Numbered from the stretch's first letter, positions 1,250-13,339 are shown. The stretch is 64,000 bases of DNA from a virus (IMGVR_UViG_3300010366_000012:11012-75011); one strand, 5' to 3'. The notes: generated by a model from the letters alone, not told the origin. Translations and numbers: made by a program.

Positions 1250-4200
1250 ATGGCACGCCCGGTCGCGCTCACACCGCTGCGGGCTGCTGCCGCGCGGCGG
1301 ATGCGGCGCACCGCCCAGGCGCTGGACGAAGATCACCCTGAGACGATCGCCGGGGATCACCTGCGGGATGCCGCCCGGGTGCTGGAGCGCGGGTCCGCTG
1401 ATGGAGCGAAGCGGCACCTCGATGCCGCGATGCAGCTGCTGACGCCGCAGTCCCTGCTGCGGCACGGCATCCGCGATGACGAGGGCCACGCGACTGCCAA
1501 GCACCACATGCACGAGGTTCACCGGCATCACCTCGCGGTGCAGGACATCGAGGACACGGCGGGCAGCAACGACCGGCTGGCCGCGATGGCCCGTGCCGCC
1601 CGTGGCCAGCCCGAGCCGATGGAGCCGTTCCACCGGCAGCCGCCCGAGCTGCTCCCGGCCATCGCCGCCACTGGTGATCATGGGAATCGCGTGATCGACC
1701 TGAAGGCCACGGCCTGGGAGCGCGAAATGCGCGACCGGTATGGCAAATGGGCCGCCTCCCCCGACTTCGCGCCGATCACCTCGATGTTCGCTCCGGGCGG
1801 GCCGCACGGCTTCCGCGGCCACTCGATCGGATCGCAGCCGGAGAAGGGCTCGGTGTTCGGCCGTCACCTGAGCATGCACGAGGCTCTCGGCGCGGCCGAA
1901 GCGCTCGGCCCGGGACACCCGAAGCAGGTGGCCAGCGCGCAGATGGCCGAGCGGGCGGGCCTCCCGAAGTTCCAGCGCAAGGTGTATGACCTGCTGCGCA
2001 AGCGCGGCCGGGGGCACTACGGCGCGCTAGTCCTGGCGCGGGCGACTACGCCCGATGTGTTCCGGGCGGGCACGTTCGCCAACAGCAGCCCGGCTGTGCA
2101 GCTGGCGTTCTGGGAGCACGAGCGGCGCAACGCGCTCGGGGAGTGGACGACCGGCGCGGACCCGCACCAGGCACCGTTCGGCTCGAACCTGCGGCCGGGC
2201 AGCCTCAACCACCTGCGCGCGATCGAGGATCTGTCCCGGCTGACCGGGTGGAACGCCACTGATGGCCGCCCGTCCTCAGACACCTTGCGCAACTCGCTGC
2301 ACCACCTGGCGCACGCGCTGGCGCTGCGCGACATGAAGTCCGCCCGGGTGCATATGGCATCGGCCCGGTGGGCCGACGAGCACGAGGCGGGCGGCGCGTA
2401 CACGCCTGAGCTGGACGCGATCGAGCGCTCTCTCGGCCTGGTGAACGTCCACCGGTCGGCCAGGTGGATGCGCCGCAGCGGCGGCCACGGGCCACATGCC
2501 TACGGGCGCACCGGCACGCCGCTGGAGCCGACGCGGGGCGCGATGCACGTGCCGGTCACCGAAATGATGTCCAACGCCACCGAGCTAGCCGCCCCGTTCC
2601 GCTACCGGCACGGCTGGATCAAGCTGGAGGATGCGAGCCCGCTGGACGGGCGGGTGGTCATCGCCAAGGCGGCGGGCGGCGGGCGGGTCGCGGGCGTCTA
2701 TGACCACGCGACCCGGACCGTGCAGCCCCGGCACACCAAGCGGCTCCCGGTCACCGCCGTGCGGAAGGCGGGCGAAGTGATGTCTGCAGCCAAGACGCCG
2801 CGCGGCCTGGCGAAGTACCGGGCCGCGTATGGCGCATATGGCCTGGCTACCGAGCTGTCGGCACGGACAGGAGCACTTGGAACGTACACTAAGACGTGGG
2901 TAAATGGGACTACGGCAACCGTCACGCGAGGGCTAGGCGGCACCTCGGCTCGCCGCGCAGCCATCCTTGCGCAGATTGTGGCGGCCAGGCGATCCACTGG
3001 GCTACGATCCACGGCCGGGATGGGGAGAGCCCTGAGGACTATCGGCCGCTCTGCAACCCCTGCCACATCGCCTACGACGGCGGTCACGCTGGCGAGCGCA
3101 ACGGCCGGGCCAGGCTCACTTGGAACGAGGTTGCTGAGATCAGAAGGCGGTACGCGGCAGGAGAGGGTGGCTACAGCACCTTTGCCCGCGAGTACGGGAT
3201 CGCCCGGTCAGCCATTGCGGACATCATCAAGCACCGTCATTGGGTTGTCCGCTAGAACTCCCTTCTTGGAGCGCACGCCCGCGCCGCGGGGCCGCCCTGG
3301 CGGGCCGGGCCTGTATCACGTCCAGGGCATGGGCCACACCGCCTACCTGCAACAGGTGGTCAAGGCGCTGATCGAGAAGCGCGGCATGCGGCCGGACAAG
3401 GCGTATGCGATTGCCCGCGCGGCGATCCGCAAGTGGGCGGCCCGGTCGAGGCATCCCGAGGTGCGCGGCGCGGCGACCCGGGCCGAGGCCGGGGAGATCG
3501 CCCGGCAGGCCCGCGCCAAGGCGCACACCGCGGCTGCCTGGGAAGTGGCGGACGTCCTGATCGAGCTGGCGTGCGAGCCGATCGAGCTTTTCAACCCCTA
3601 CCATGCGCCACCCGGCGCTGGCGGCGGGCAGTTCACCACGCAGCAGGGCGCGGGCCAGGGGCAGGCCAAGGGCAGCAAGGCCCAGCGCCGGGCCAAGCTG
3701 GTCAAGCAGATCGCCAGCCTGCGGCGGCAGATCGCGGCGCTCCGGGCGCAGCTCCCGTCCACCTCGCCGCGCAAGCCTGGCAAGCCTGGCAAGTCCAAGG
3801 GCAGCACCCCGGCCAAGAAAGGCGCGGGCGCGCAGTCTGCCAAGCAGGCCAGGCAGGGCAAGCAGTCGGCTAAGACCGCGGCGCGCAAGACCGCCTCGGT
3901 GGCCACGATCCATGCCAAGATCGCCGCGCTGCGGGCCGAGCTGCAGGCCGACATCGCCGCGCTGCGGAAGCTGGCCAACGACCAGCCCGCGATCGAGCTG
4001 ATCGGGGACGGCCACGGGCACCACATCCCCGGCACGCCGGACGTCTACAGCCACGGCTGGCGGCCACTGGCCGGGACCACGATCGGGCCTAAGGGCATCC
4101 GCATTCCGGGCAGTGGCGGTGGTCCCCCAAAAGTCGCTAGCGCGGGACGGGTGCGCGCCGCGGTCAAGGCCGCCCGCATCACCAGGCCCGCGGTCACCCC

Positions 4201-4984
4201 GGCTGCCACCGCACCGGCCGCGCCCAAGCCCTCTGCGGGCGGGACCGCTGGCCTGGCTGCCGCGATGTCCTCTGGCGTGAAGAGCCGCAAGGAGCCCGGG
4301 AAGGCGTCGGTCAGCGGGTCGCAGGGCCTGCAGGGCGGCACCGAGATCGTCACGTTCAACAACGGCGCTCAGTTCGTCCACAAGGACTACAAGTACCTGC
4401 CGCTTCCCCCGGGCCTCCAGCAACTGCAGGCGCAGAAGGAGGTGCTGGCTGCCAAGATCTCCAAGGCCCTCGGCGCGGGAGCGCCGGACATCATCCCCGA
4501 TCCGGGCGGCAGCCCGACCAGTTTCTACATGGCGAAGATCGAGGGAGTCTCCGGCATGGAGAAGTTCAATGGCCCGGCCAGTGGCCTCCAGGGTTCCGAC
4601 GCGGCGGCAGCGGAGAAGTTCTTCAACTCCCCCGAGGGCAAGAAGATCGGGCTGCTGGACATGATCATCGGGCATGCCGACCGGCACCTGGGCAACGTCA
4701 TGGTCACCCCGGACGGCAAGCCAGTCCCGATCGACCACAATGACACCTGGGGCGCGGTGGACCTGAACGGCAACATGGTCACCACCAGCCCGTTTGCCGC
4801 CGAGCTAGAGAAGCAGATGAAGGCGGGCAACAGCCCGTTCAGCGTGGATGACATCGACCGGATCACCGCGCAGGTCAAGGCGCTCCAGCCCGAGTTCGGC
4901 AAGCTGAACTTCGACGCCGGGTCCAGCTACTACAGCATGACGATGAGTGAGCTGGCCCGGATCAGGAAGCTGGTGGCGAAGTGA
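1250..4984 (+). CDS. head-associated polyprotein 1 with C-terminal PI3/4-kinase/HipA-like kinase domain
   Basis: ATG 1250 in frame with track ORF; kinase motifs FVHK, KEVLAAKISKALG, DMIIGHADRHLGNVM..PIDH; repeated [VI][DE]L module boundaries. Confidence 0.75.
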   Translation: MARPVALTPLRAAAARRMRRTAQALDEDHPETIAGDHLRDAARVLERGSADGAKRHLDAAMQLLTPQSLLRHGIRDDEGHATAKHHMHEVHRHHLAVQDIEDTAGSNDRLAAMARAARGQPEPMEPFHRQPPELLPAIAATGDHGNRVIDLKATAWEREMRDRYGKWAASPDFAPITSMFAPGGPHGFRGHSIGSQPEKGSVFGRHLSMHEALGAAEALGPGHPKQVASAQMAERAGLPKFQRKVYDLLRKRGRGHYGALVLARATTPDVFRAGTFANSSPAVQLAFWEHERRNALGEWTTGADPHQAPFGSNLRPGSLNHLRAIEDLSRLTGWNATDGRPSSDTLRNSLHHLAHALALRDMKSARVHMASARWADEHEAGGAYTPELDAIERSLGLVNVHRSARWMRRSGGHGPHAYGRTGTPLEPTRGAMHVPVTEMMSNATELAAPFRYRHGWIKLEDASPLDGRVVIAKAAGGGRVAGVYDHATRTVQPRHTKRLPVTAVRKAGEVMSAAKTPRGLAKYRAAYGAYGLATELSARTGALGTYTKTWVNGTTATVTRGLGGTSARRAAILAQIVAARRSTGLRSTAGMGRALRTIGRSATPATSPTTAVTLASATAGPGSLGTRLLRSEGGTRQERVATAPLPASTGSPGQPLRTSSSTVIGLSARTPFLERTPAPRGRPGGPGLYHVQGMGHTAYLQQVVKALIEKRGMRPDKAYAIARAAIRKWAARSRHPEVRGAATRAEAGEIARQARAKAHTAAAWEVADVLIELACEPIELFNPYHAPPGAGGGQFTTQQGAGQGQAKGSKAQRRAKLVKQIASLRRQIAALRAQLPSTSPRKPGKPGKSKGSTPAKKGAGAQSAKQARQGKQSAKTAARKTASVATIHAKIAALRAELQADIAALRKLANDQPAIELIGDGHGHHIPGTPDVYSHGWRPLAGTTIGPKGIRIPGSGGGPPKVASAGRVRAAVKAARITRPAVTPAATAPAAPKPSAGGTAGLAAAMSSGVKSRKEPGKASVSGSQGLQGGTEIVTFNNGAQFVHKDYKYLPLPPGLQQLQAQKEVLAAKISKALGAGAPDIIPDPGGSPTSFYMAKIEGVSGMEKFNGPASGLQGSDAAAAEKFFNSPEGKKIGLLDMIIGHADRHLGNVMVTPDGKPVPIDHNDTWGAVDLNGNMVTTSPFAAELEKQMKAGNSPFSVDDIDRITAQVKALQPEFGKLNFDAGSSYYSMTMSELARIRKLVAK
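2896..3255 (+). mobile_element. HNH homing endonuclease with C-terminal HTH DNA-binding module, overprinted on polyprotein 1
   Basis: CADC..H..LCNPCH..YD plus GERNGRARLTWNEVAEIRR; lies in a 390-bp segment flanked by a duplicated LSART peptide. Confidence 0.8.
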
Positions 4985-5178
4985 TCGAGATCCACAGCGA
5001 GCGCGGAAAGATCGGGGAGGTTGACCTGAAGGGCGGCAAGCTGACCGGATCGACTCAGGGTATCCAGCACGTCTGCGATCACATGGTTGCCAAGCACGGC
5101 GGGCACGCCGAGGCGTTCAAGGCGATGGCCAGCCTCAACAACGGATACGTGTGGGCCAGTGGCGCTGCAGCTCAGTGA
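4981..5178 (+). CDS. small protein, paralog A (candidate kinase immunity protein)
   Basis: GTGA overlap with polyprotein 1 stop; similar to the next gene (G.V.L..G.LTG...L.NGYV.AS). Confidence 0.75.
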   Translation: MIEIHSERGKIGEVDLKGGKLTGSTQGIQHVCDHMVAKHGGHAEAFKAMASLNNGYVWASGAAAQ

Positions 5179-5347
5179 CAAGGAGGGCGTGCTCGGCCAC
5201 GTCTGGCTGCAGGATGGCCAGCTGACCGGGGACAACCCGTCTGCGCAGCAGCTGGCGGACAAGTATCAGGCCAGGTACGGCGCTGACGCTTACGCCGAGC
5301 TGGCGAAGCTGGACAACGGATACGTGCGGGCCAGTGAATATCAGTGA
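5159..5347 (+). CDS. small protein, paralog B (candidate kinase immunity protein)
   Basis: GTG 5159; aligns end to end with 4981..5178; shared DNA ACAACGGATACGTG. Confidence 0.75.
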   Translation: MALQLSDKEGVLGHVWLQDGQLTGDNPSAQQLADKYQARYGADAYAELAKLDNGYVRASEYQ

Positions 5348-8300
5348 CCAGGTTGACCTGGCAGCCTGGACGCACGAGCGCCGGGTGCCCAAGGGCATGC
5401 CTGGCGCTGGGCGGTGGATCAGGGGCGGGCCGGGCATCTTCCGGGTGGCCGGGTTCGAGCCGGGCGTGGCCAAGCCCGAGGTGGGCGACAAGGTGGTGGG
5501 GGAGGGGCCTGGCGATCTCCCCGGCCTGCTGCTCGGGCACGTGGTGGCACGGGTGGGCCTGGTGGCCGCGGTGGACGCCGACGACGGGCACCGCTACCAG
5601 TTCGACTGGACGAGCGGCAAGGTGGTCGGGGACCGCGTGCCACTGTCGCGGGCGATGCCCGCCGAGCAGCTGCGCCAGGCGGGCCAGCACGAGGCGGCAT
5701 TGCGCGAGCGGCAGCACAACTTCCGCAGGCAGGCCAACGCCACCTGGACGGTAGATGAGAAGGGCTCGATCGTCCACCACGCGCATGCGCCGCAATCCCT
5801 GGTGGACCGGGTGTCAAGGTTCCGCGCCAAGATCCGCGCGCAGGCTGGGGCTGACGTCAGCCCGCCCCCTCATCACGCCCCCGGTGTCTCGGCGGGTGTG
5901 CGGGCGCTCCGGCAGGCCCGCGAGCGGGAGAAGGCCGCGATCATTTCGGTGGAGCGTGACCCGCATCCGCCCAACCCGCTCGCGCCGTGGCTGGTGAAGG
6001 CCGCGGACCTCAGCGAGTGGCACGTCGATGACCGCGAGGCGGGCCGCCTGCACAAGATGCTCCGCGAGCGCGAGGGCCTGCACTACACCGCCCCGGGCAC
6101 TGAGATCGCCCCCGGCGTCAAGCAGTACATGCTGCCGGGCACCGAGAAGCTGCAGCCCACCACCGAGTACGGCCAGAACAGCCCCCCGGTGAAAGAGCTG
6201 CGCTCGGTGATCACGCTGGGCGAGCTGGAGCGGGCCAAGATGCTGCCCGAGGACCAGCCCGAGCAGGGCATCCAGGGCGTGACCCGCATCCTCACCCTGC
6301 CGGACTACGGCGAGGGCGTGCGGAAGGTCGTGGTCAAGGACCAGGCCCCGGAGCGCAACGACCGCGAAGAGCTGTCCTACTACGTCAGCCAGGCGCTCGG
6401 CGGCGGGTCCGGCCTGCCCACGGTGGTGCGCTACCCGGGCAACCCGGGCCGGATCGTGGAAGATGTGGTGCCCGGACGGCCTGCCGCCCGCTATGCGATG
6501 GATGCAGTGACCCCGGGCGGCGACTGGGGGCCGAATTACGACGAGCAGAGCGTGCTGGACGAGATCGCCTACAGCCCGACCGGCCAGGAGATCGGGCTGC
6601 TGGACTACCTGACCGGCAACTATGACCGGCACGACTACAACTACCTGATTGACGAGCAGGGCGTCCCGCACCCGATTGACATGGGCATGGCGCAGTTCGA
6701 CGGCGGCACTGATAGCCCGTTCTGGGAGGGCGAAGAGGGCCAGGTGCCCGCCGAGGTGGTCGATGAATGGGCAGCCGAGCTGGCGAAGATCGAGCCCGAG
6801 TTCCGCCGCCTCGGGCATGAGGACTGGTACGTGGTGATGATGGATGCCCTGTCCCGCCTGGCCGAGTCCAGCGAGTATTCGATCGGTGCGCAGCTCGGCG
6901 TGATCGAGCTGACCCGCAGCCCGGCCTGGCTGCACGAGCTGCGCATCCCCAAGGGCAGGCCGCACGCCGGGGAGTGGGTTCATTCCCCGTCCGATGTGCC
7001 GGGCAAGGGCCTGGACCGCTACAAGATGCCCCCGCACTCCCGGCTGCTCAACCCCCGGGCCGACGTCGAAGATCCGGCCGATTACCCATTCTTCAAGAAG
7101 CACCCGGTCAGCGTGCAGAACGTGCTCGATGCCTACGACGCGGTGCCCGAGCAGACGCGCAAGGAGGGCATGAAGTGGTACTCCGACGCGCACCTGCTGG
7201 CCAGGGCGATCGGGATGCTCGGCGGCGGTCACGGGGATGACAGGCAGAACGCCGAGCTGGGCGCGATCCTGCTGGGCAACTACAGCAGCTCGGCTAACTG
7301 GCCGATCAACATGTTCCGCGCGGCGCGGGCGTCGGATGAGAACAAGCCGATCGCCAAGGGCGACGGGTATGTGTCCCAGGACCAGGTGAAGAAGGCCCAG
7401 AAGGCCCTGGACGGCATGAGCATTGATGACGTCCTGATCAGCCCCAAGACACGCAGCTTCGCCCACCTGCTGGCCACGGGCGATGACTCACCCGACGACC
7501 CCTACGGGCACGTGGTGATCGACGCGCATGCGCTGAACGTGGCGATGGGCGGCGGGGAGCGCGGGCTGACCTACGTCCGGGGCAAGAAGCAGCAGGAGCT
7601 GCCGCCCGAGGACACCCCGCCGCTCGATGACGCCCGCGCGCACGAGTATGTCGGGGACATGTACCGGGAGGCCGCCCGGATCATCAGCAAGCGGGACGGG
7701 CAGCTGATCACCCCCTACCAGGTGCAGGCGGTCACCTGGGTCCAGCAGGTGCTGGCCAACATGGCCCTGGACAAGGCGGAAATGGAGGGCGCTGAGGGTG
7801 GCGTGCTGGGCCGGGCCAAGGGCCGGTTGTCGGCCAAGGCCAAGGACTGGCAGCGCTGGCTGGCCTATGCCAAGGCACACAATCTGCAGCTGGTGCCCGG
7901 CGTGTCGGCGCTGGCGCACGAGGCGATGATGGCGCAGCTGATCGAGCTGATCGGGGAGGACGCCATCTACAGCCAGGTGATCGAGCTGGACTTCAACCCG
8001 GGCCAGCCGCGCGGGCCGGACGGGAAGTGGATCAAGATTGGGGGGCTCACGGCGCTCGACCCGTTCTACAACGAGCTGCCCGAGTCCGGGCACCGCGGCA
8101 CCGTCCGGGTCAAGGGCACGCTCGGGCCGGGCGGGCTGGGCCGCGAGCGCGAGGACGCCGAGCGGCTGGCTGCCTACCGCGAGCAGCAGTACCAGGCGAC
8201 GAAGGTGCAACGGCAGCGGCAGCACGCCTACCCGGAGATCGGGCCGGAGAATGCCCGGGGCAACAGCAGGCCGGTCAGCCCCGAAGAGTTCCAGCACCTC

Positions 8301-8918
8301 GCCTCGCTCGGCAACCAGTGGATCGACCAGGCCAAAGATCACCGCGCCCCGATCATCGGCCTCGAAGGCCCGGAGTGGGATGCAGTCAAGGCGCGCAGCT
8401 ACGGCGAGGTGACCAAGAGCTGGGGCGGCGCGACGATCGACACCGACACCGGCAAGCCGCTGGCCCATGATGCTGACGTGTACGCAATCAGCGTCAAGCC
8501 CCGCGGGATGTACACCGTCTCGGTCCCCGAGTCGGCCACGGCCGAAGAGTTCGGCCGGGCGATGGACCGGGCCAAGGAGCTGTTCCGCCCGGCGCTGGAG
8601 CGGCGCGGATTCTACCTCGGCGTGTTCCACGACGATGACGAGGGCCGGATCGACATCGACCCGGTGGCCATCGTGGACTCGATCCCGCTGGTCGAGCAGG
8701 TCGGCGCGTACACCCGGGCGATTGGCGGCGCATACCATTTCAAGAGCGGCGACGGGTTCTGGCCGCCGCACGTCGAGCAGGGCGCGAGCATGGCAGACGA
8801 CGACACTCACTTCGAGCACGGGTATGCCCAGTGGCACACCCAGGCGGTGGCCGTGCAGGAGCCCGAGCCGGACGAGCCGGGCATCGCGGAGCAGCTGGGC
8901 GAAATCGGGCAGATGTAA
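5334..8918 (+). CDS. head-associated polyprotein 2: PI3/4-kinase-like domain, glycosylase-like domain, C-terminal SAM-lyase-like domain
   Basis: DYLTGNYDRHDYNYL..PIDMG; GMKWY..A / PKTRSF / VVIDAH; YLGVFHD...IDID. Confidence 0.7.
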   Translation: MNISDQVDLAAWTHERRVPKGMPGAGRWIRGGPGIFRVAGFEPGVAKPEVGDKVVGEGPGDLPGLLLGHVVARVGLVAAVDADDGHRYQFDWTSGKVVGDRVPLSRAMPAEQLRQAGQHEAALRERQHNFRRQANATWTVDEKGSIVHHAHAPQSLVDRVSRFRAKIRAQAGADVSPPPHHAPGVSAGVRALRQAREREKAAIISVERDPHPPNPLAPWLVKAADLSEWHVDDREAGRLHKMLREREGLHYTAPGTEIAPGVKQYMLPGTEKLQPTTEYGQNSPPVKELRSVITLGELERAKMLPEDQPEQGIQGVTRILTLPDYGEGVRKVVVKDQAPERNDREELSYYVSQALGGGSGLPTVVRYPGNPGRIVEDVVPGRPAARYAMDAVTPGGDWGPNYDEQSVLDEIAYSPTGQEIGLLDYLTGNYDRHDYNYLIDEQGVPHPIDMGMAQFDGGTDSPFWEGEEGQVPAEVVDEWAAELAKIEPEFRRLGHEDWYVVMMDALSRLAESSEYSIGAQLGVIELTRSPAWLHELRIPKGRPHAGEWVHSPSDVPGKGLDRYKMPPHSRLLNPRADVEDPADYPFFKKHPVSVQNVLDAYDAVPEQTRKEGMKWYSDAHLLARAIGMLGGGHGDDRQNAELGAILLGNYSSSANWPINMFRAARASDENKPIAKGDGYVSQDQVKKAQKALDGMSIDDVLISPKTRSFAHLLATGDDSPDDPYGHVVIDAHALNVAMGGGERGLTYVRGKKQQELPPEDTPPLDDARAHEYVGDMYREAARIISKRDGQLITPYQVQAVTWVQQVLANMALDKAEMEGAEGGVLGRAKGRLSAKAKDWQRWLAYAKAHNLQLVPGVSALAHEAMMAQLIELIGEDAIYSQVIELDFNPGQPRGPDGKWIKIGGLTALDPFYNELPESGHRGTVRVKGTLGPGGLGREREDAERLAAYREQQYQATKVQRQRQHAYPEIGPENARGNSRPVSPEEFQHLASLGNQWIDQAKDHRAPIIGLEGPEWDAVKARSYGEVTKSWGGATIDTDTGKPLAHDADVYAISVKPRGMYTVSVPESATAEEFGRAMDRAKELFRPALERRGFYLGVFHDDDEGRIDIDPVAIVDSIPLVEQVGAYTRAIGGAYHFKSGDGFWPPHVEQGASMADDDTHFEHGYAQWHTQAVAVQEPEPDEPGIAEQLGEIGQM

Positions 8919-9062
8919 GTACAGGTAACAGCTGTAAGTACAGGCACTTAATCCCCGGATGCCCTATCCGCCACGCCTTTCCAGCGCGTAGCATGCCGAG
9001 CTAGACGAGTCTGGCGCGCATGTCCCCGCGCGTGCCGGTCCATTAGTGACCGGAGGCGGGGA

Positions 9063-10508
9063 GTGACGTCCCCCGTTGTTGATCTTGTTGGCCCCGGGCT
9101 GACCTCTCTGTGCGCTGACTGCGCTGCAGTTGAGCTGGCTGCTGGCGGGCCGCACGGGTTCAAGCACGGCTGGGTCTGTGTCGATCCCGCCAAGTGCGGG
9201 CACCGCGGCGTCAGCGGGCGCGCTCACACCTCGCGGCTGGTCGCCCGCGACGTCCGCGGGCAGCGCGCCCGGCTGAAGAATGCCTCCCCCTCCCTGGCGG
9301 CCAACCGGGCCACGGCGGCGCTGAAGGGCAAGCGGGGCTCGGACTACCAGCACCTGGCCGCCGCCCGACTGCACGCGGCTGCGGCCAGGTCAGCCAGCTC
9401 GCCGGAGCTGAGGGCGCACCACGACCGGATGGCCAAGATGCACCGGGGCATCGCGGTGCGCACTCCCGGCCGGATGACCGGCGCACCGAAGCGGGACAGC
9501 GCGGGCCGCCAGCTCGGCAAGAACGCGCAGGGCGAAACGACCCGCACGATGCCGGACTTCTCGGGCCGGGGCAAAGGCCCCCCGGAGTTCGAGGCCGGGC
9601 GCAGGGCATCGCAGCAGGGCAAGGGTCCATTCCGCACGCCCCGGCCGCTGCCGTGGCCGGGCAACAAGCGCACGCCCCGGCCGCTACCGTCCTACAGCAA
9701 GCCGATTGGCCCCAACATGGGACAGCTGGGCAAGGCTGCCAAGGGCAGCAACAGGAACCTGTCCAAGGCGAACCGGGCCACGGCGTATGCGGCCGGGCAC
9801 GCGCTGCCGCCGCCGAGCAAGGGCGCACCGCACGGCTTCCCGGTGACCAGCCCCAAGTCCTGGGAGGACGCCCGCAGGGCGGTCGGCCGGGTCAAGTCAC
9901 CGGCCCGGCGCGCTCAGCTGAAGGCGCTGCTGCGCCGCACTGCTGCCCAGTACGGCAAGACCAAGGCGCTGAAGGCGTCCTGGGCGGCAGCCAACACACT
10001 CCCCGGACTGGAGCTTGCCGTGCCTGCATCCCTGGCTGTGACCAGCCCCTACGACGTCATGATCACCCGGGCGCAGGACGGCAGCTCTGCAGTGATACGG
10101 CACCGCCGCGGCGGGGCTGAGATCGGGACGATCAAGAGCACCCCCGAGGGCTGGGTCGCGGTCGCTGGCGGGAAGGATCTGGCCCCGCACACCCGCCAGC
10201 GCGCCGCGCTTCTGGAGCTGATCGGGACGCACAACCGGGCCAGCGGGACGCCCTACCACCGGCCGACCGAGCCGCTGCAGCCTAAGCCCGAGCAGACCGA
10301 GCTGATGCGCCAGTACGGCATCCCCGCGATCCGCGCGATGGCCACGCCCTCGGCCGGTGCCGACGACGGACCCCGGGTCACCACGAACGGGCTGAGCCCC
10401 CGGGGCACGGCGATCTACAAGAAGCTGCGCAGCCGGAACTTCCCGCACGAGCGGGCGCACGCCTTCGCCCGGAGGGCGCAGAACAAGATCCGGGGGCGGG
10501 GCAAGTGA
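9063..10508 (+). CDS. head-associated polyprotein 3 (basic, unknown domains)
   Basis: VVDL, AVEL, GLEL motifs and GFKHGW module; GTGA overlap with the protease gene. Confidence 0.7.
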   Translation: MTSPVVDLVGPGLTSLCADCAAVELAAGGPHGFKHGWVCVDPAKCGHRGVSGRAHTSRLVARDVRGQRARLKNASPSLAANRATAALKGKRGSDYQHLAAARLHAAAARSASSPELRAHHDRMAKMHRGIAVRTPGRMTGAPKRDSAGRQLGKNAQGETTRTMPDFSGRGKGPPEFEAGRRASQQGKGPFRTPRPLPWPGNKRTPRPLPSYSKPIGPNMGQLGKAAKGSNRNLSKANRATAYAAGHALPPPSKGAPHGFPVTSPKSWEDARRAVGRVKSPARRAQLKALLRRTAAQYGKTKALKASWAAANTLPGLELAVPASLAVTSPYDVMITRAQDGSSAVIRHRRGGAEIGTIKSTPEGWVAVAGGKDLAPHTRQRAALLELIGTHNRASGTPYHRPTEPLQPKPEQTELMRQYGIPAIRAMATPSAGADDGPRVTTNGLSPRGTAIYKKLRSRNFPHERAHAFARRAQNKIRGRGK

Positions 10509-11704
10509 GCGTAGCGGTCCTGACCCCGTTCACCGGGGATGACGGGACACAGGCCAGCGGTCGCTGGCGGAAGAAACTGCTGCCCATCGGGGAGATCAAC
10601 TACAAGGGCCGGGTGCTGAAGTTCACCCGCGACTACCTGGCCGGGCTGGTGGACTCCTTCCAGCGCCGTGCCTACGACCAGGTGCCGTTCCAGCTGGCTG
10701 ATTCGGCCAACACGCACACGAATGATGTGGAGCGCACCGGGGGCCAGATCACCGACATGTCCCTGGAGCCAGACGGGCTCTGGATCGAGCTGCAGCCCAC
10801 CGAGCGCGGCGCGCGGGTGCTGGCTGACAACCCCGGTGTCGGCGTGTCCGCCCGGATTGTCGAGCAGTACGAGCGCTCGGACGGCGAGCACTTTCCCCGC
10901 GCGGTGCAGCACGTGCTCTGCACGCTGGACCCCCGCATCCCCGGCATGGGCGGCTGGGAAGCCGTCGCAGCCTCCAACGATGCCGCAGAGATCACGATCG
11001 ACCTCTCCGGCGAGCACTTCACAGGAACGGAGATCTCCATGCCGGAGCTGACTAAGGACCAGCAGGACAAGCTGGCCCAGCTGCTGGACCTGGACCCCGC
11101 CAAGCTGGCTGCGCTGGTGGCCAGCCAGGAGGGCGGCGGGATCAGCCCTGAGGCCGTCGCGGCGCTGGACGGTGACGCCGACGCCGACGACGCGGAGGCA
11201 GCCGAGGTGGCCAGGTGGATCGACGGGCTGACCGATGACCAGCTGGCCGAGCTGGAAGCCGAGCTGGAAGCCGAGGATGGCGAGCGCGAGCCCGAGCCCG
11301 CGGCGCTGTCTGGCGAGGACGCCTCCGCGGTGGAGCTGGCCCAGGCCACGGGTGACGAGGCGCTGCGGCAGCTGGCGATCGTCAACGGCCAGCTGGACAG
11401 CGAGCGGTGGCAGAACGAGCGCCGCAAGCTGGTGGCTGCGGGCACCCCGCCGTTCATCGCGGACCTGGCCCAGCCACTGCTGGAGGGCGCGGGCCACGTG
11501 GTGGACCTGGCCAACGGCAAGTCCGTGGACGCCGGGCTGATCGTCCGCAAGATCCTCACCGAGTTCCAGAAGCTCGGCCAGCAGCTCGGCCTCGGCATCG
11601 AGCTGGGCACCGAGGCGGACGAGCCGGAGGACACCACCGTCGAGGACTCCCGCAACGACGTGGTGACCCGGGCCAAGGCGCAGCTGTTTGGCATCCGCTC
11701 ATGA
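10505..11704 (+). CDS. Mu gpI-like prohead protease/scaffold fusion
   Basis: N-terminal LLPIGEINY..FT, VSARI, HVLCTLDPRIPGM motifs; acidic coiled-coil C-terminus; upstream of capsid genes. Confidence 0.8.
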   Translation: MSVAVLTPFTGDDGTQASGRWRKKLLPIGEINYKGRVLKFTRDYLAGLVDSFQRRAYDQVPFQLADSANTHTNDVERTGGQITDMSLEPDGLWIELQPTERGARVLADNPGVGVSARIVEQYERSDGEHFPRAVQHVLCTLDPRIPGMGGWEAVAASNDAAEITIDLSGEHFTGTEISMPELTKDQQDKLAQLLDLDPAKLAALVASQEGGGISPEAVAALDGDADADDAEAAEVARWIDGLTDDQLAELEAELEAEDGEREPEPAALSGEDASAVELAQATGDEALRQLAIVNGQLDSERWQNERRKLVAAGTPPFIADLAQPLLEGAGHVVDLANGKSVDAGLIVRKILTEFQKLGQQLGLGIELGTEADEPEDTTVEDSRNDVVTRAKAQLFGIRS

Positions 11705-11916: not shown

Positions 11917-12414
11917 ATGACCGCGGTTCTCCCGCACTACAAGGAAGGACCAGCCTCATACCAGGTCAGTGCGCTGATCTTCGGTGGCCAGCTGGTCGAG
12001 AACACGACGCAGACCGCGGGCACGACCGACCTGACGGTCAAGCCCTGCGTGGCCGCGTCGGTCCACTGCCTCGGGGTGGCAGGCAAGGACGGCAACGTGC
12101 TGTCTAGCCAGATCCCCCCGGCAACCAACACTTACGGCGAGCCCCAGCTGGACATCAGCGTGCTGGACGACTTCATCAGCGTCTATCACGGCCCGGTGGA
12201 CATCTGGGTGTGGTACTCCGCTGCCTGCACGCCGGGGATCAAGCTGCTCTGCACCGCCAACGGCTGCGTCGGCCCGGCCGGTGCGGGGCCAGCGGCTGAC
12301 CAGGTGGTCGGCATTTGCACTCATCCAGGCGGCGTAGCTGCCGCGCAGCTCACCCAGCAGATCGGCGGGCTAGGAGCCAGCAGCTTCTTCCTGGGCCGAG
12401 CCCGGATCTTCTGA
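11917..12414 (+). CDS. probable capsid decoration/cement protein
   Basis: RBS AGGAGG; size, beta-rich composition and position between protease and capsid. Confidence 0.6.
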   Translation: MTAVLPHYKEGPASYQVSALIFGGQLVENTTQTAGTTDLTVKPCVAASVHCLGVAGKDGNVLSSQIPPATNTYGEPQLDISVLDDFISVYHGPVDIWVWYSAACTPGIKLLCTANGCVGPAGAGPAADQVVGICTHPGGVAAAQLTQQIGGLGASSFFLGRARIF

Positions 12415-12427
12415 AAGGAGCTGACCG

Positions 12428-13339
12428 ATGCCGGTCGCAGCACGCGGGTACAGCGATGGCCCCAGAGTCACTGTCAACGAGCTGATCAAAGATCCGCTGA
12501 CGATCCCGCAGCTGATCTTGGATCTGTCGCAGAACGAGTTCATCGTGGACTCCGTTCTGCGCAACGGCGGCAACACGCCGAGCGGCGCGGTGCGCTACAG
12601 CGAGAGCACGCCGCTGTACGCCGACGACTTCCCCGAGATCCGCGCCGAGTTCGCTGAGGTGCCGATCGTCCCGACGTCCATCGGCGTCCCCCGCGTGGTG
12701 TTCAGCCACGAGCGGGCCATGGCGATCATGGTCAGCGACGAAATGCGCCGCCGTCAGGTTGTCGATCCGGTAACCAGGCAGCTACTCCAAGTCAAAAACA
12801 CGATGGTCTATTCGTGGAACACGGCTTTCTACAGCGCCGTGGTGGCGAATGCGTCCATTCAGACATTGGCGGTGGCAAACACCTGGGCATCGGCGGCAGC
12901 GACCATTCGTGCCGACCTCGCGCAAGCCTGCTACCTGGTGGAGAACGCCTCAACAACGGCTCCATCCGGGCTGACACAATGGCTCAGCTTCGAGGCCGAT
13001 ACCTTGATCATCAACCACGGGACAAAGAACACGCTTTTGCAGAGCAATACGTTTGCTGCCCCTTATGTGGGTGACATCGCGTCCGAGAACTTGCTGTACA
13101 CGGGCGTGCTGCCACAGAAGATCTTGAACCTCGACGTCATGGTCAGCCGCCAGGTGCCCGCGGGCAACGCGATCGTCATGCAGCGCCAGCGGTGCGGCTT
13201 CTACTCCGACGAGCTGCCCTACACGGCCGGTCCGCTGTACCGCGACGAGCCCCGCAAGACGTGGCGCAGCGACACCCAGCGGGCCAGCGCGCTCGGGCTC
13301 GACCAGCCACTGGCCATCGTCCTGCTCTCGGGAGTCTGA
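12428..13339 (+). CDS. major capsid protein
   Basis: RBS AAAGGAG; 303 aa with HK97-fold-like features (RAEFAEVP, C-terminal LGLDQPLAIVLLSGV); synteny. Confidence 0.85.
   Translation: MPVAARGYSDGPRVTVNELIKDPLTIPQLILDLSQNEFIVDSVLRNGGNTPSGAVRYSESTPLYADDFPEIRAEFAEVPIVPTSIGVPRVVFSHERAMAIMVSDEMRRRQVVDPVTRQLLQVKNTMVYSWNTAFYSAVVANASIQTLAVANTWASAAATIRADLAQACYLVENASTTAPSGLTQWLSFEADTLIINHGTKNTLLQSNTFAAPYVGDIASENLLYTGVLPQKILNLDVMVSRQVPAGNAIVMQRQRCGFYSDELPYTAGPLYRDEPRKTWRSDTQRASALGLDQPLAIVLLSGV

Follow-up and report, generated by a model that had tools for sequence, protein, structure and literature searches.

A shared peptide motif links candidate cargo modules and a predicted prohead protease-scaffold in the head region of an uncultured actinophage

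Known head proteases of phages cleave at short motifs such as L/I-x-E or S/A/G-x-E. In T4, phiKZ and SPN3US, cargo is known to be processed at a motif that the scaffold carries too, the SPN3US case being described in PMC5694885 and PMC10052503. The proteases concerned are T4 gp21, which acts on the scaffold gp22 and on IPI-III and Alt, phiKZ gp175 and SPN3US gp245. Polyvalent proteins (Iyer et al. 2017, PMC5512222) and toxins fused to MuF (PMC5576092) show, in addition, that phages package multi-domain effectors. Here we describe a 64,000-nucleotide (nt) stretch, referred to as the window, that covers positions 11012-75011 of one virus record of 75,011 bp (IMGVR_UViG_3300010366_000012, 70% G+C) from an uncultured soil actinophage. 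In its siphovirus head module, three long genes, P1, P2 and P3, precede a gene, P4, for a predicted prohead protease-scaffold, and the tripeptide [VI][DE]L recurs in all four products. We consider it probable, at roughly 60%, that P1-P3 are chains of modules that are loaded into the prohead and cut by P4 at [IVL][DE]L junctions. The junction, the tags that follow it and the protease family appear to be new; the kinds of system that they recall, polyvalent proteins and the cargo processing of T4 and phiKZ, are already known.

The locus resembles the T4 type in that P4 is predicted to have the assemblin fold of a head protease, in that one short motif is common to scaffold and cargo, and in that the N-termini of P2 and P3 are 8-9-residue leaders ending in [V]DL, just as T4 cargo proteins begin with short, capsid-targeting leaders that end in the motif. 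It differs in that the motif is [IVL]-[DE]-L followed by a small residue, in that the putative cargo consists of module chains with internal junctions rather than single proteins, in that the conserved tag follows the site instead of lying in the leader before it, and in that the locus belongs to a siphovirus whose head module is Mu-like.

The motif [VI][DE]L occurs 16 times in the 3,318 amino acids (aa) of P1-P4 (4.8 per 1000 aa), whereas the remaining predicted proteins, 16,569 aa in total, contain it 10 times (0.6 per 1000 aa). Shuffled versions of P1-P4 contained 3.1 copies on average, with 0 of 1000 shuffles reaching 16, and the control proteome is not itself depleted (10 copies observed vs 13.4 expected). 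The stricter pattern [VI][DE]L[AS] is found six times in P1-P4 and twice in the other predicted proteins, and the tag pattern W.[HR]E.R.{2,10}G.W four times and not at all, respectively. A six-frame search of the 75-kb genome with a hidden Markov model (HMM) of the junction, 28 positions long and covering site and tag, returned five matches of 26-36 bits, all within P1 or P2; the next best scored 4.7 bits. The shuffles, the control proteome and the six-frame scan together reject a chance origin of the motif. A preliminary description of this stretch had placed the three genes in the head region, listed individual motif copies and proposed a comparison with control proteins; P1-P3 do lie between the MuF and protease genes, every listed copy is present at its given position, and the comparison gives the enrichment reported here.

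A consensus of 163 distinct cargo junctions, numbered by protease subsite around the presumed cut, reads A/V at subsite P4, I/V/L at subsite P3 (76%), E/D at subsite P2 (79%), L at subsite P1 (90%) and A/V/G/S at subsite P1′ (73%), which is the same as the consensus of the sites within the P4 protease-scaffold. At least four classes of tag follow the sites: class A (AW.HE.R...G.W), class B (FNP..PR[DG]..G.W), class C (GP[KH]G[YF].HGW, with a long variant GHH.PGT....HGW) and class D (SART..LERTPAPRG, i.e. SART..LERTPAPRGRPGGPGLY). Among related loci, 88 distinct junctions belong to class A or B and over 40 to class C. Site and tag behave like a single portable unit, which is also found at N-termini; some sites stand without a tag, namely GLEL-AV in P3 and all four sites in P4. 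The earlier proposal that one shared tag starts every module thus has to be replaced by several classes and some tagless modules, and the "targeting" role that it gave to the tag is a guess. Junction 4 of P1, of class D, is interrupted exactly at the junction by a 390-nt insertion (window 2858-3247) between duplicated LSART codons, and the homologs in loci L003 and L014 read ATELSARTAMLERTPAPRG without it. The P1 frame is open through the insertion, so the resulting junk peptide would have a copy of the junction on either side. In another frame, the insertion holds a 119-aa open reading frame (ORF; 2896-3255, + strand) with an HNH-like motif (CADCGG...HWATIHG...CNPCH) and a weak helix-turn-helix match.

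We also considered whether the P2 sequence IELDFNPGQP, which recalls the D-x-E-x-NPGP signature of picornavirus 2A-like ribosome skipping, could act in that way, and rejected this because NPG is not kept in homologs (FNPDEP, FNPLQP, FNPAEP) and because 2A activity is not known from bacterial ribosomes.

The identification of P4 as a prohead protease-scaffold fusion, in line with its preliminary assignment as a head protease, is well supported by structure prediction. A Foldseek search of the PDB with the AlphaFold2 (AF2) model (predicted local distance difference test score, pLDDT, 79.7) gave T4 gp21 as the best match (5jbl, E 2.7e-4, probability 1.0, target-normalized template modeling score, TM(target), 0.49-0.55), followed by the proteases of human cytomegalovirus (HCMV) and herpes simplex virus 1 (HSV-1). 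In BFVD the model had 115 matches at E≤1e-3, many of them named prohead protease and others Mu-like prophage I protein or prohead scaffold and peptidase. P4 homologs occur at 80 IMG/VR loci, and an alignment of 42 of them displays a highly conserved N-terminal domain (residues ~1-160) followed by a variable, acidic, helical part; the candidate catalytic residues of the former are ordered His-Ser-His. By sequence, P4 has no match at E≤0.01 in Pfam (including S78, S77 and Mu-like_Pro) or PHROGs, and none in the PDB. With 1052 cluster representatives found in 1.84 billion proteins (E≤1e-3), its family is large; "hypothetical protein" is the label of LazerLemon gp13 and of other members from cultured Streptomyces phages, as well as of the member from Microcystis phage Mwe-JY05. 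The Ruthy-type "capsid maturation protease" of Gordonia phages was rejected as a relative (hhalign probability 5%).

As the preliminary description had noted, the motif recurs within the protease-scaffold, and it does so at four conserved positions. Across the 42 homologs these sites read I/V/L at subsite P3, D/E at P2 (92-100%), L/M at P1 (93-100%) and S/T/A/G at P1′ (99-100%), and all are kept in the Mwe-JY05 and LazerLemon homologs. Three of the four stand in otherwise variable sequence. Site 1 directly precedes a hypervariable insert, and sites 2 and 4 adjoin variable segments. If P4 cuts at its own sites, the protease domain would be freed and the scaffold part diced. The motif could instead be read as a docking element, in which [VI][DE]L, with or without a tag, lets cargo and scaffold bind a common prohead partner, for example as an added strand, and all proteins stay whole. 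TIDL and VVD are indeed predicted as short strands in the P4 model, and a portable unit of site and tag, N-termini included, would suit docking as well. Scaffold parts fused to proteases are, however, normally cleaved away (T4 gp21/gp22, HK97 gp4), and the comparison across lineages given below also speaks against docking, which we therefore regard as unlikely.

The gene order portal, MuF, protease-scaffold, capsid, and the arrangement of an N-terminal protease followed by a C-terminal scaffold, are those of phage Mu. A conserved internal Met179 codon with GGAG 6 nt upstream suggests that a nested scaffold is translated separately from the P4 gene, comparable to Mu I/Z and lambda C/Nu3. Unlike Mu, the window phage has a protease without a match to PF10123 (Mu-like_Pro), and ~9 kb of putative cargo genes separate its MuF and protease genes. 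In many P4 homologs (e.g., those in loci L033, L036 and L042), an additional A[VI]EL-G lies ~15 residues away from the protease N-terminus (PAVELGNRLWRKK) and may mark a short pro-peptide; P4 of the window lacks it.

The junctions coincide with the borders of exchangeable modules, both in P1-P3 and in their relatives, as a look at module content in related phages, suggested in the preliminary description, bears out. When P1-P3 were compared by BLAST with ORFs of related loci, homology began or ended at junctions, with breaks at the end of the P1 N-terminal module (~110-150), at the starts (510-540) and ends (860-910) of P2 modules and at the start of the P3 C-terminal part (300-330). Among high-scoring segment pairs (HSPs) of at least 80 aa in tagged proteins, 16% of internal ends fell within 5 aa of a [VI][DE]L, versus 3.6% of random positions; for all tagged proteins, 17% of internal HSP ends lay within 10 aa of a tagged junction, versus 4% of random positions. 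In ~80 related contigs the junctions are placed at homology breaks between swappable modules whose number and order vary from locus to locus; the kinase-like module, for instance, ends an ORF at some loci and starts the next ORF at others. Module order was read qualitatively only, as single-linkage clustering over-merged the segments. The structural model of P3 agrees with this picture, with GLEL in a low-confidence linker joining two confidently folded domains and the tagged N-terminus disordered.

Clustering of breakpoints at junctions would also be expected if these were kept only as homologous crossover points without any role as peptides. We consider this highly improbable: the DNA of junctions within the genome is merely 56% identical and has no long identical runs, which points to selection on the peptide; amino acids rather than DNA are conserved, and this extends to phages of 42-75% GC; and the same tripeptide is conserved in the protease-scaffold, which is not modular. 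The polymorphic-toxin systems, with VENN in CdiA and PxxxxDPxGL in Rhs, likewise have a short conserved peptide at an exchange border, and the Rhs border motif is also a cleavage site. Unlike those motifs, the one described here is present in many copies per protein, and a separate protease-scaffold has sites that match it.

Evidence on the position of the putative cut came from a scan of IMG/VR for tags B and C. Both tags also occur in phages unrelated to this one. Tag B had 67 distinct occurrences, in contigs of 42-75% G+C, and the residues before it read [VILA][DE][LM] in 7, carry Lys in the Leu position in 23 and consist of the start Met directly in at least 5. Tag C occurred 36 times after [VI][DE]L-x and ~37 times after hydrophobic-x-K-V. 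These two flavours, [VI][DE]L and Lys, follow the protease family: a P4-type protease was present in the fetched interval of 18 of 36 [VI][DE]L-flavour loci versus 0 of 31 Lys-flavour loci, and the 5 protease-bearing loci with tag B all have the [VI]EL flavour. Searching whole contigs with the P4 profile recovered the protease in four of five additional [VI][DE]L contigs, including all three that are complete, and in none of five Lys contigs. A tag that remains constant while the preceding residue switches with the protease family is the pattern predicted for a cleavage site. For a binding strand one would instead expect changes that track its partner, not an exchange of L for K at a single position with a small residue behind it, and the change from [VI][DE]L to hydrophobic-x-K in the three residues before an unchanged tag, in step with the protease family, therefore favors cleavage over docking. 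The comparison favors a cut between the Leu and the tag. The tag would then stand at a free N-terminus, much as it does where it follows the start Met.

P1-P3 sit within the head module, bounded by the MuF gene and the protease gene, in the order MuF, a small ORF, P1, P2, P3 and P4. Upstream are the genes for the large terminase, a Mu-type portal (PF06074 Portal_Mu) and the MuF protein; downstream of P4 follow a 165-aa head protein, the major capsid protein, connector and tail-tube genes and the tape measure. The three genes might nevertheless not encode cargo at all, being late cytoplasmic multi-domain proteins in the head operon whose junctions serve as flexible linkers or are cut outside the capsid. 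That MuF is a separate ORF agrees with this, as does a search of P1-P3 against Pfam at E≤0.01, which detected none of the hub domains of packaged polyvalent proteins (MPTase, ArdC-N, ART, SNF2 ATPase, methylase, DdrB-ParB, MuF-C, PBECR); distant versions may be present in the several modules that match no family. We nonetheless judge a non-cargo role quite unlikely, given that the placement of these genes between MuF and protease is kept in ~80 related contigs and in cultured Streptomyces phages, that the motif is common to the protease-scaffold only, that tags directly follow MuF domains in other phages, and that natural fusions of MuF, cargo and protease exist. One such fusion, P0149 (1149 aa), joins MuF, a cargo module and a P4-type protease-scaffold with [VI][DE]L-type sites at the borders; its MuF H..CRC motif appears interrupted by an intein-like insert (CFPAGTLV...VHNC). 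In the cultured phage LazerLemon (L085, 3476-7003), gp8, a 1175-aa protein annotated as hypothetical and encoded between MuF and the P4 homolog, starts with ...GVEL-PGY... and ends with ...VVEL-VQ. By eye, an ADP-ribosyltransferase-like ExE motif (HSHEQEILLNRGSKYKI) can be recognized in the C-terminal region of gp8, ahead of VVEL-VQ. The cyanophage Mwe-JY05, which has a P4-type protease (L084), shows VVEL followed by another conserved tag, ARYVRT.AGA.RYG.PIG, in a MuF-like protein and in a 1669-aa protein (156-1328 and 1689-6698).

Several observations weigh against processing of P1-P3 by P4. No [VI][DE]L match among the control proteins falls inside the portal, MuF, the capsid protein or the 165-aa head protein, and the capsid protein lacks the motif in the window phage and in ~50 homologs; without a site in portal, MuF or capsid, the reading has no anchor in a known processed head protein. 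One copy, AVDL at residue 1170 of P1, falls within the kinase-like module. In the AF2 model of P4, site 3 lies in a predicted strand and site 2 starts a long helix, so some copies may not be accessible. The association between flavour and protease family is confounded by shared ancestry, and a search for the protease of the Lys-flavour phages with PF04586 (S78) gave one weak match; PF10123 gave none, a result that is uninformative as the PF10123 control also gave none. Tags directly after MuF domains in other phages are hard to square with a pure capsid-targeting role, and our literature search for the junction, the tags and the P4 protease family found no description of them.

Modules joined by a signal that also marks the protease-scaffold would probably be loaded into the capsid and cut there, and we accordingly favor a model of P4 processing as follows. 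P1, P2 and P3 would be the cargo of a Mu-like siphovirus head, with swappable modules chained by two-part junctions. The first part, [A/V]-[I/V/L]-[D/E]-L plus a small residue, would be recognized and cut by P4. The second part, a tag of 10-20 aa from one of the several classes, would after the cut form the N-terminal end of the module that follows. The tags are not lineage-specific and are likely to act as free N-terminal peptides, either in loading the module into the prohead or in guiding its exit with the DNA.

A wider possibility, which we put forward tentatively, is that tags such as FNP..PRD..GRW, AW.HE.R...G.W and GPKGY.HGW, together with others, constitute a cargo code across many tailed-phage lineages, exposed either by cleavage with each lineage's head protease (at [IVL][DE]L here and at hydrophobic-x-K elsewhere) or by placement right behind the start Met, and directing modules into the prohead, out through the tail with the DNA, or both. 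Such a code would amount to a general, modular form of protein delivery that could be re-programmed by swapping modules. Phage proteins that enter the cell with the DNA, and the way in which they are selected for packaging, are known for few model phages. The sequence rule described here combines a three-residue site specific to the protease with a portable tag and predicts what a large group of uncultured actinophages carries as cargo; an unannotated protease family of more than 1000 cluster representatives, with cultured relatives in Streptomyces griseus, is now identified. Should the tags be loading or ejection signals, they would make it possible to predict cargo from sequence, and they would provide a means of putting chosen proteins into phage capsids in laboratory strains.

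Few of the modules resemble known families. The P1 kinase module scores 28.8 bits against PF00454 (cut-off 27.1) and keeps DRHxxN and a downstream metal-binding Asp; the P2 module is a weaker copy (16.4 bits, below the cut-off). PF00454 is found in 16-38% of the members of the nearest Atlas clusters. Judged by sequence, only these two PI3/4-kinase-like modules look like enzymes. Sequence searches of the PDB with the kinase, DUF7178 and C-terminal modules gave nothing significant, and the P3 model matched generic helical bundles only (Z at most 8) and nothing in BFVD below E 0.01. The N-terminal module of P1 is conserved in 26-28 relatives. The P3 C-terminal module is conserved in ~66 relatives, always directly upstream of the protease, and may for this reason be a core head component rather than an effector. 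The earlier designation of all these parts as effectors goes too far: two PI3/4-kinase-like modules and one DUF7178 are all that can be recognized, the others could be assigned to no family, and the P3 C-terminus is perhaps part of the head itself.

Like the polyvalent proteins (PMC5512222), which are long, multi-domain, mosaic, adjacent to virion genes, predicted to be packaged and injected and in some cases equipped with kinase domains, P1 and P2 combine at least two unrelated effector-type domains beside virion genes: P2 has the kinase-like, DUF7178 and third modules, and P1 at least six modules. For the polyvalent proteins, no prohead-protease junction motif or tags are described in that paper, their kinases form a truncated protein-kinase clade in contrast to the PI3/4-kinase-like ones here, and their self-processing is proposed to occur through embedded zincin-like metallopeptidase domains (PMC5512222). 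In MuF polymorphic toxins (Jamet et al. 2017, PMC5576092) and in the MuF-VIP2 fusions of Microbacterium phages (PMC7302621), variable effector modules are carried on MuF, and the FNP..PRD..GRW tag that directly follows the MuF H..CRC motif in some of the other phages recalls such fusions. In the window there is no MuF-toxin chain; the MuF ORF ends with a stop codon at position 734, and the cargo is encoded in three separate ORFs. The text of PMC5576092 contains none of the searched word stems for cleavage, linkers or conserved motifs. Very large virion-associated proteins described as "likely processed" have been reported from Microbacterium phages (PMC7302621). Coordinates of all features are collected in Table 1.

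Table 1. Positions of the cargo genes, junctions, protease-scaffold sites and reference gene in the window (nt)
Feature	Position	Strand	Remark
P1, 1244-aa multi-module protein, six junctions, PI3/4-kinase-like C-terminal module	1250..4984	+	
P1 junction 1: VIDL + KATAWEREMRDRYGKW, tag class A	1691..1750	+	
P1 junction 2: AVQL + AFWEHERRNALGEW, tag class A	2093..2146	+	
P1 junction 3: ATEL + AAPFRYRHGW, HGW tag class	2576..2617	+	
P1 junction 4: ATEL-SART, 390-nt insertion, VIGL-SARTPFLERTPAPRGRPGG, tag class D	2846..3304	+	
P1 junction 5: LIEL-ACEPIEL + FNPYHAPPGAGGGQF, weak class B tag	3557..3634	+	
P1 junction 6: AIEL + IGDGHGHHIPGTPDVYSHGW, long HGW tag	3989..4060	+	
P1 kinase catalytic segment (HADRHLGN...IDHN)	4643..4750	+	PF00454 PI3_PI4_kinase, above curated cut-off
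P2, 1194 aa: 9-aa leader, then kinase-like, DUF7178 and third modules	5334..8918	+	
P2 junction 1, N-terminal: QVDL + AAWTHERRVPKGMPGAGRW	5349..5417	+	
P2 kinase-like catalytic segment (NYDRHDYN...IDMG)	6591..6773	+	Weak PF00454 match
P2 junction 2: VIEL + TRSPAWLHELRIPKGRPHAGEW	6900..6977	+	
P2 DUF7178 module	7113..7742	+	PF23802, E 7.7e-23; phrog_3842
P2 junction 3: VIEL + DFNPGQPRGPDGKW, tag class B	7977..8030	+	
P3, 481 aa: disordered tagged N-terminus, two helical domains, GLEL linker, C-terminal module	9063..10508	+	
P3 N-terminal sites: VVDL, then AVEL + AAGGPHGFKHGW (HGW tag)	9075..9173	+	
P3 site GLEL-AV	10005..10022	+	Low-confidence linker, residues 313-320
P4, 399 aa: predicted prohead protease (aa 1 to ~160) and helical scaffold part (aa ~168-399)	10505..11704	+	
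P4 candidate catalytic H71 (10715-10717), S115 (10847-10849), H136 (10910-10912)	10715..10912	+	Invariant, 42 homologs
P4 site 1: TIDL-S (L167), end of protease domain	10994..11008	+	D, L 100%, S/T 100% conserved
P4 conserved internal ATG (M179), GGAG 6 nt upstream	11039..11041	+	Possible nested scaffold, 11039-11704
P4 site 2: AVEL-A (L278)	11327..11341	+	
P4 site 3: VVDL-A (L335)	11498..11512	+	
P4 site 4: GIEL-G (L367)	11594..11608	+	E and G invariant
Major capsid protein (phrog_1650)	12428..13339	+	Context and negative control

Among cultured phages, a search for near-DNA relatives found none, and tblastn with P1 and P2 gave marginal matches only. The capsid protein shares 35-42% identity with its counterparts in Gordonia, Mycobacterium and Streptomyces phages and in one Microcystis phage. 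The 165-aa ORF between the protease-scaffold and capsid genes (11917-12414, + strand) has a weak match to a PHROG scaffolding family (E 7e-5) and by eye is strand-rich rather than helical; scaffold and decoration protein are both candidates. Two tandem paralogous ORFs of ~60 aa (about 4981-5344, + strand), both with an NGYV[WR]AS ending, occupy the space from the end of P1, where its kinase module lies, to the beginning of P2 and overlap both neighbors; the pair could encode immunity or chaperone proteins.

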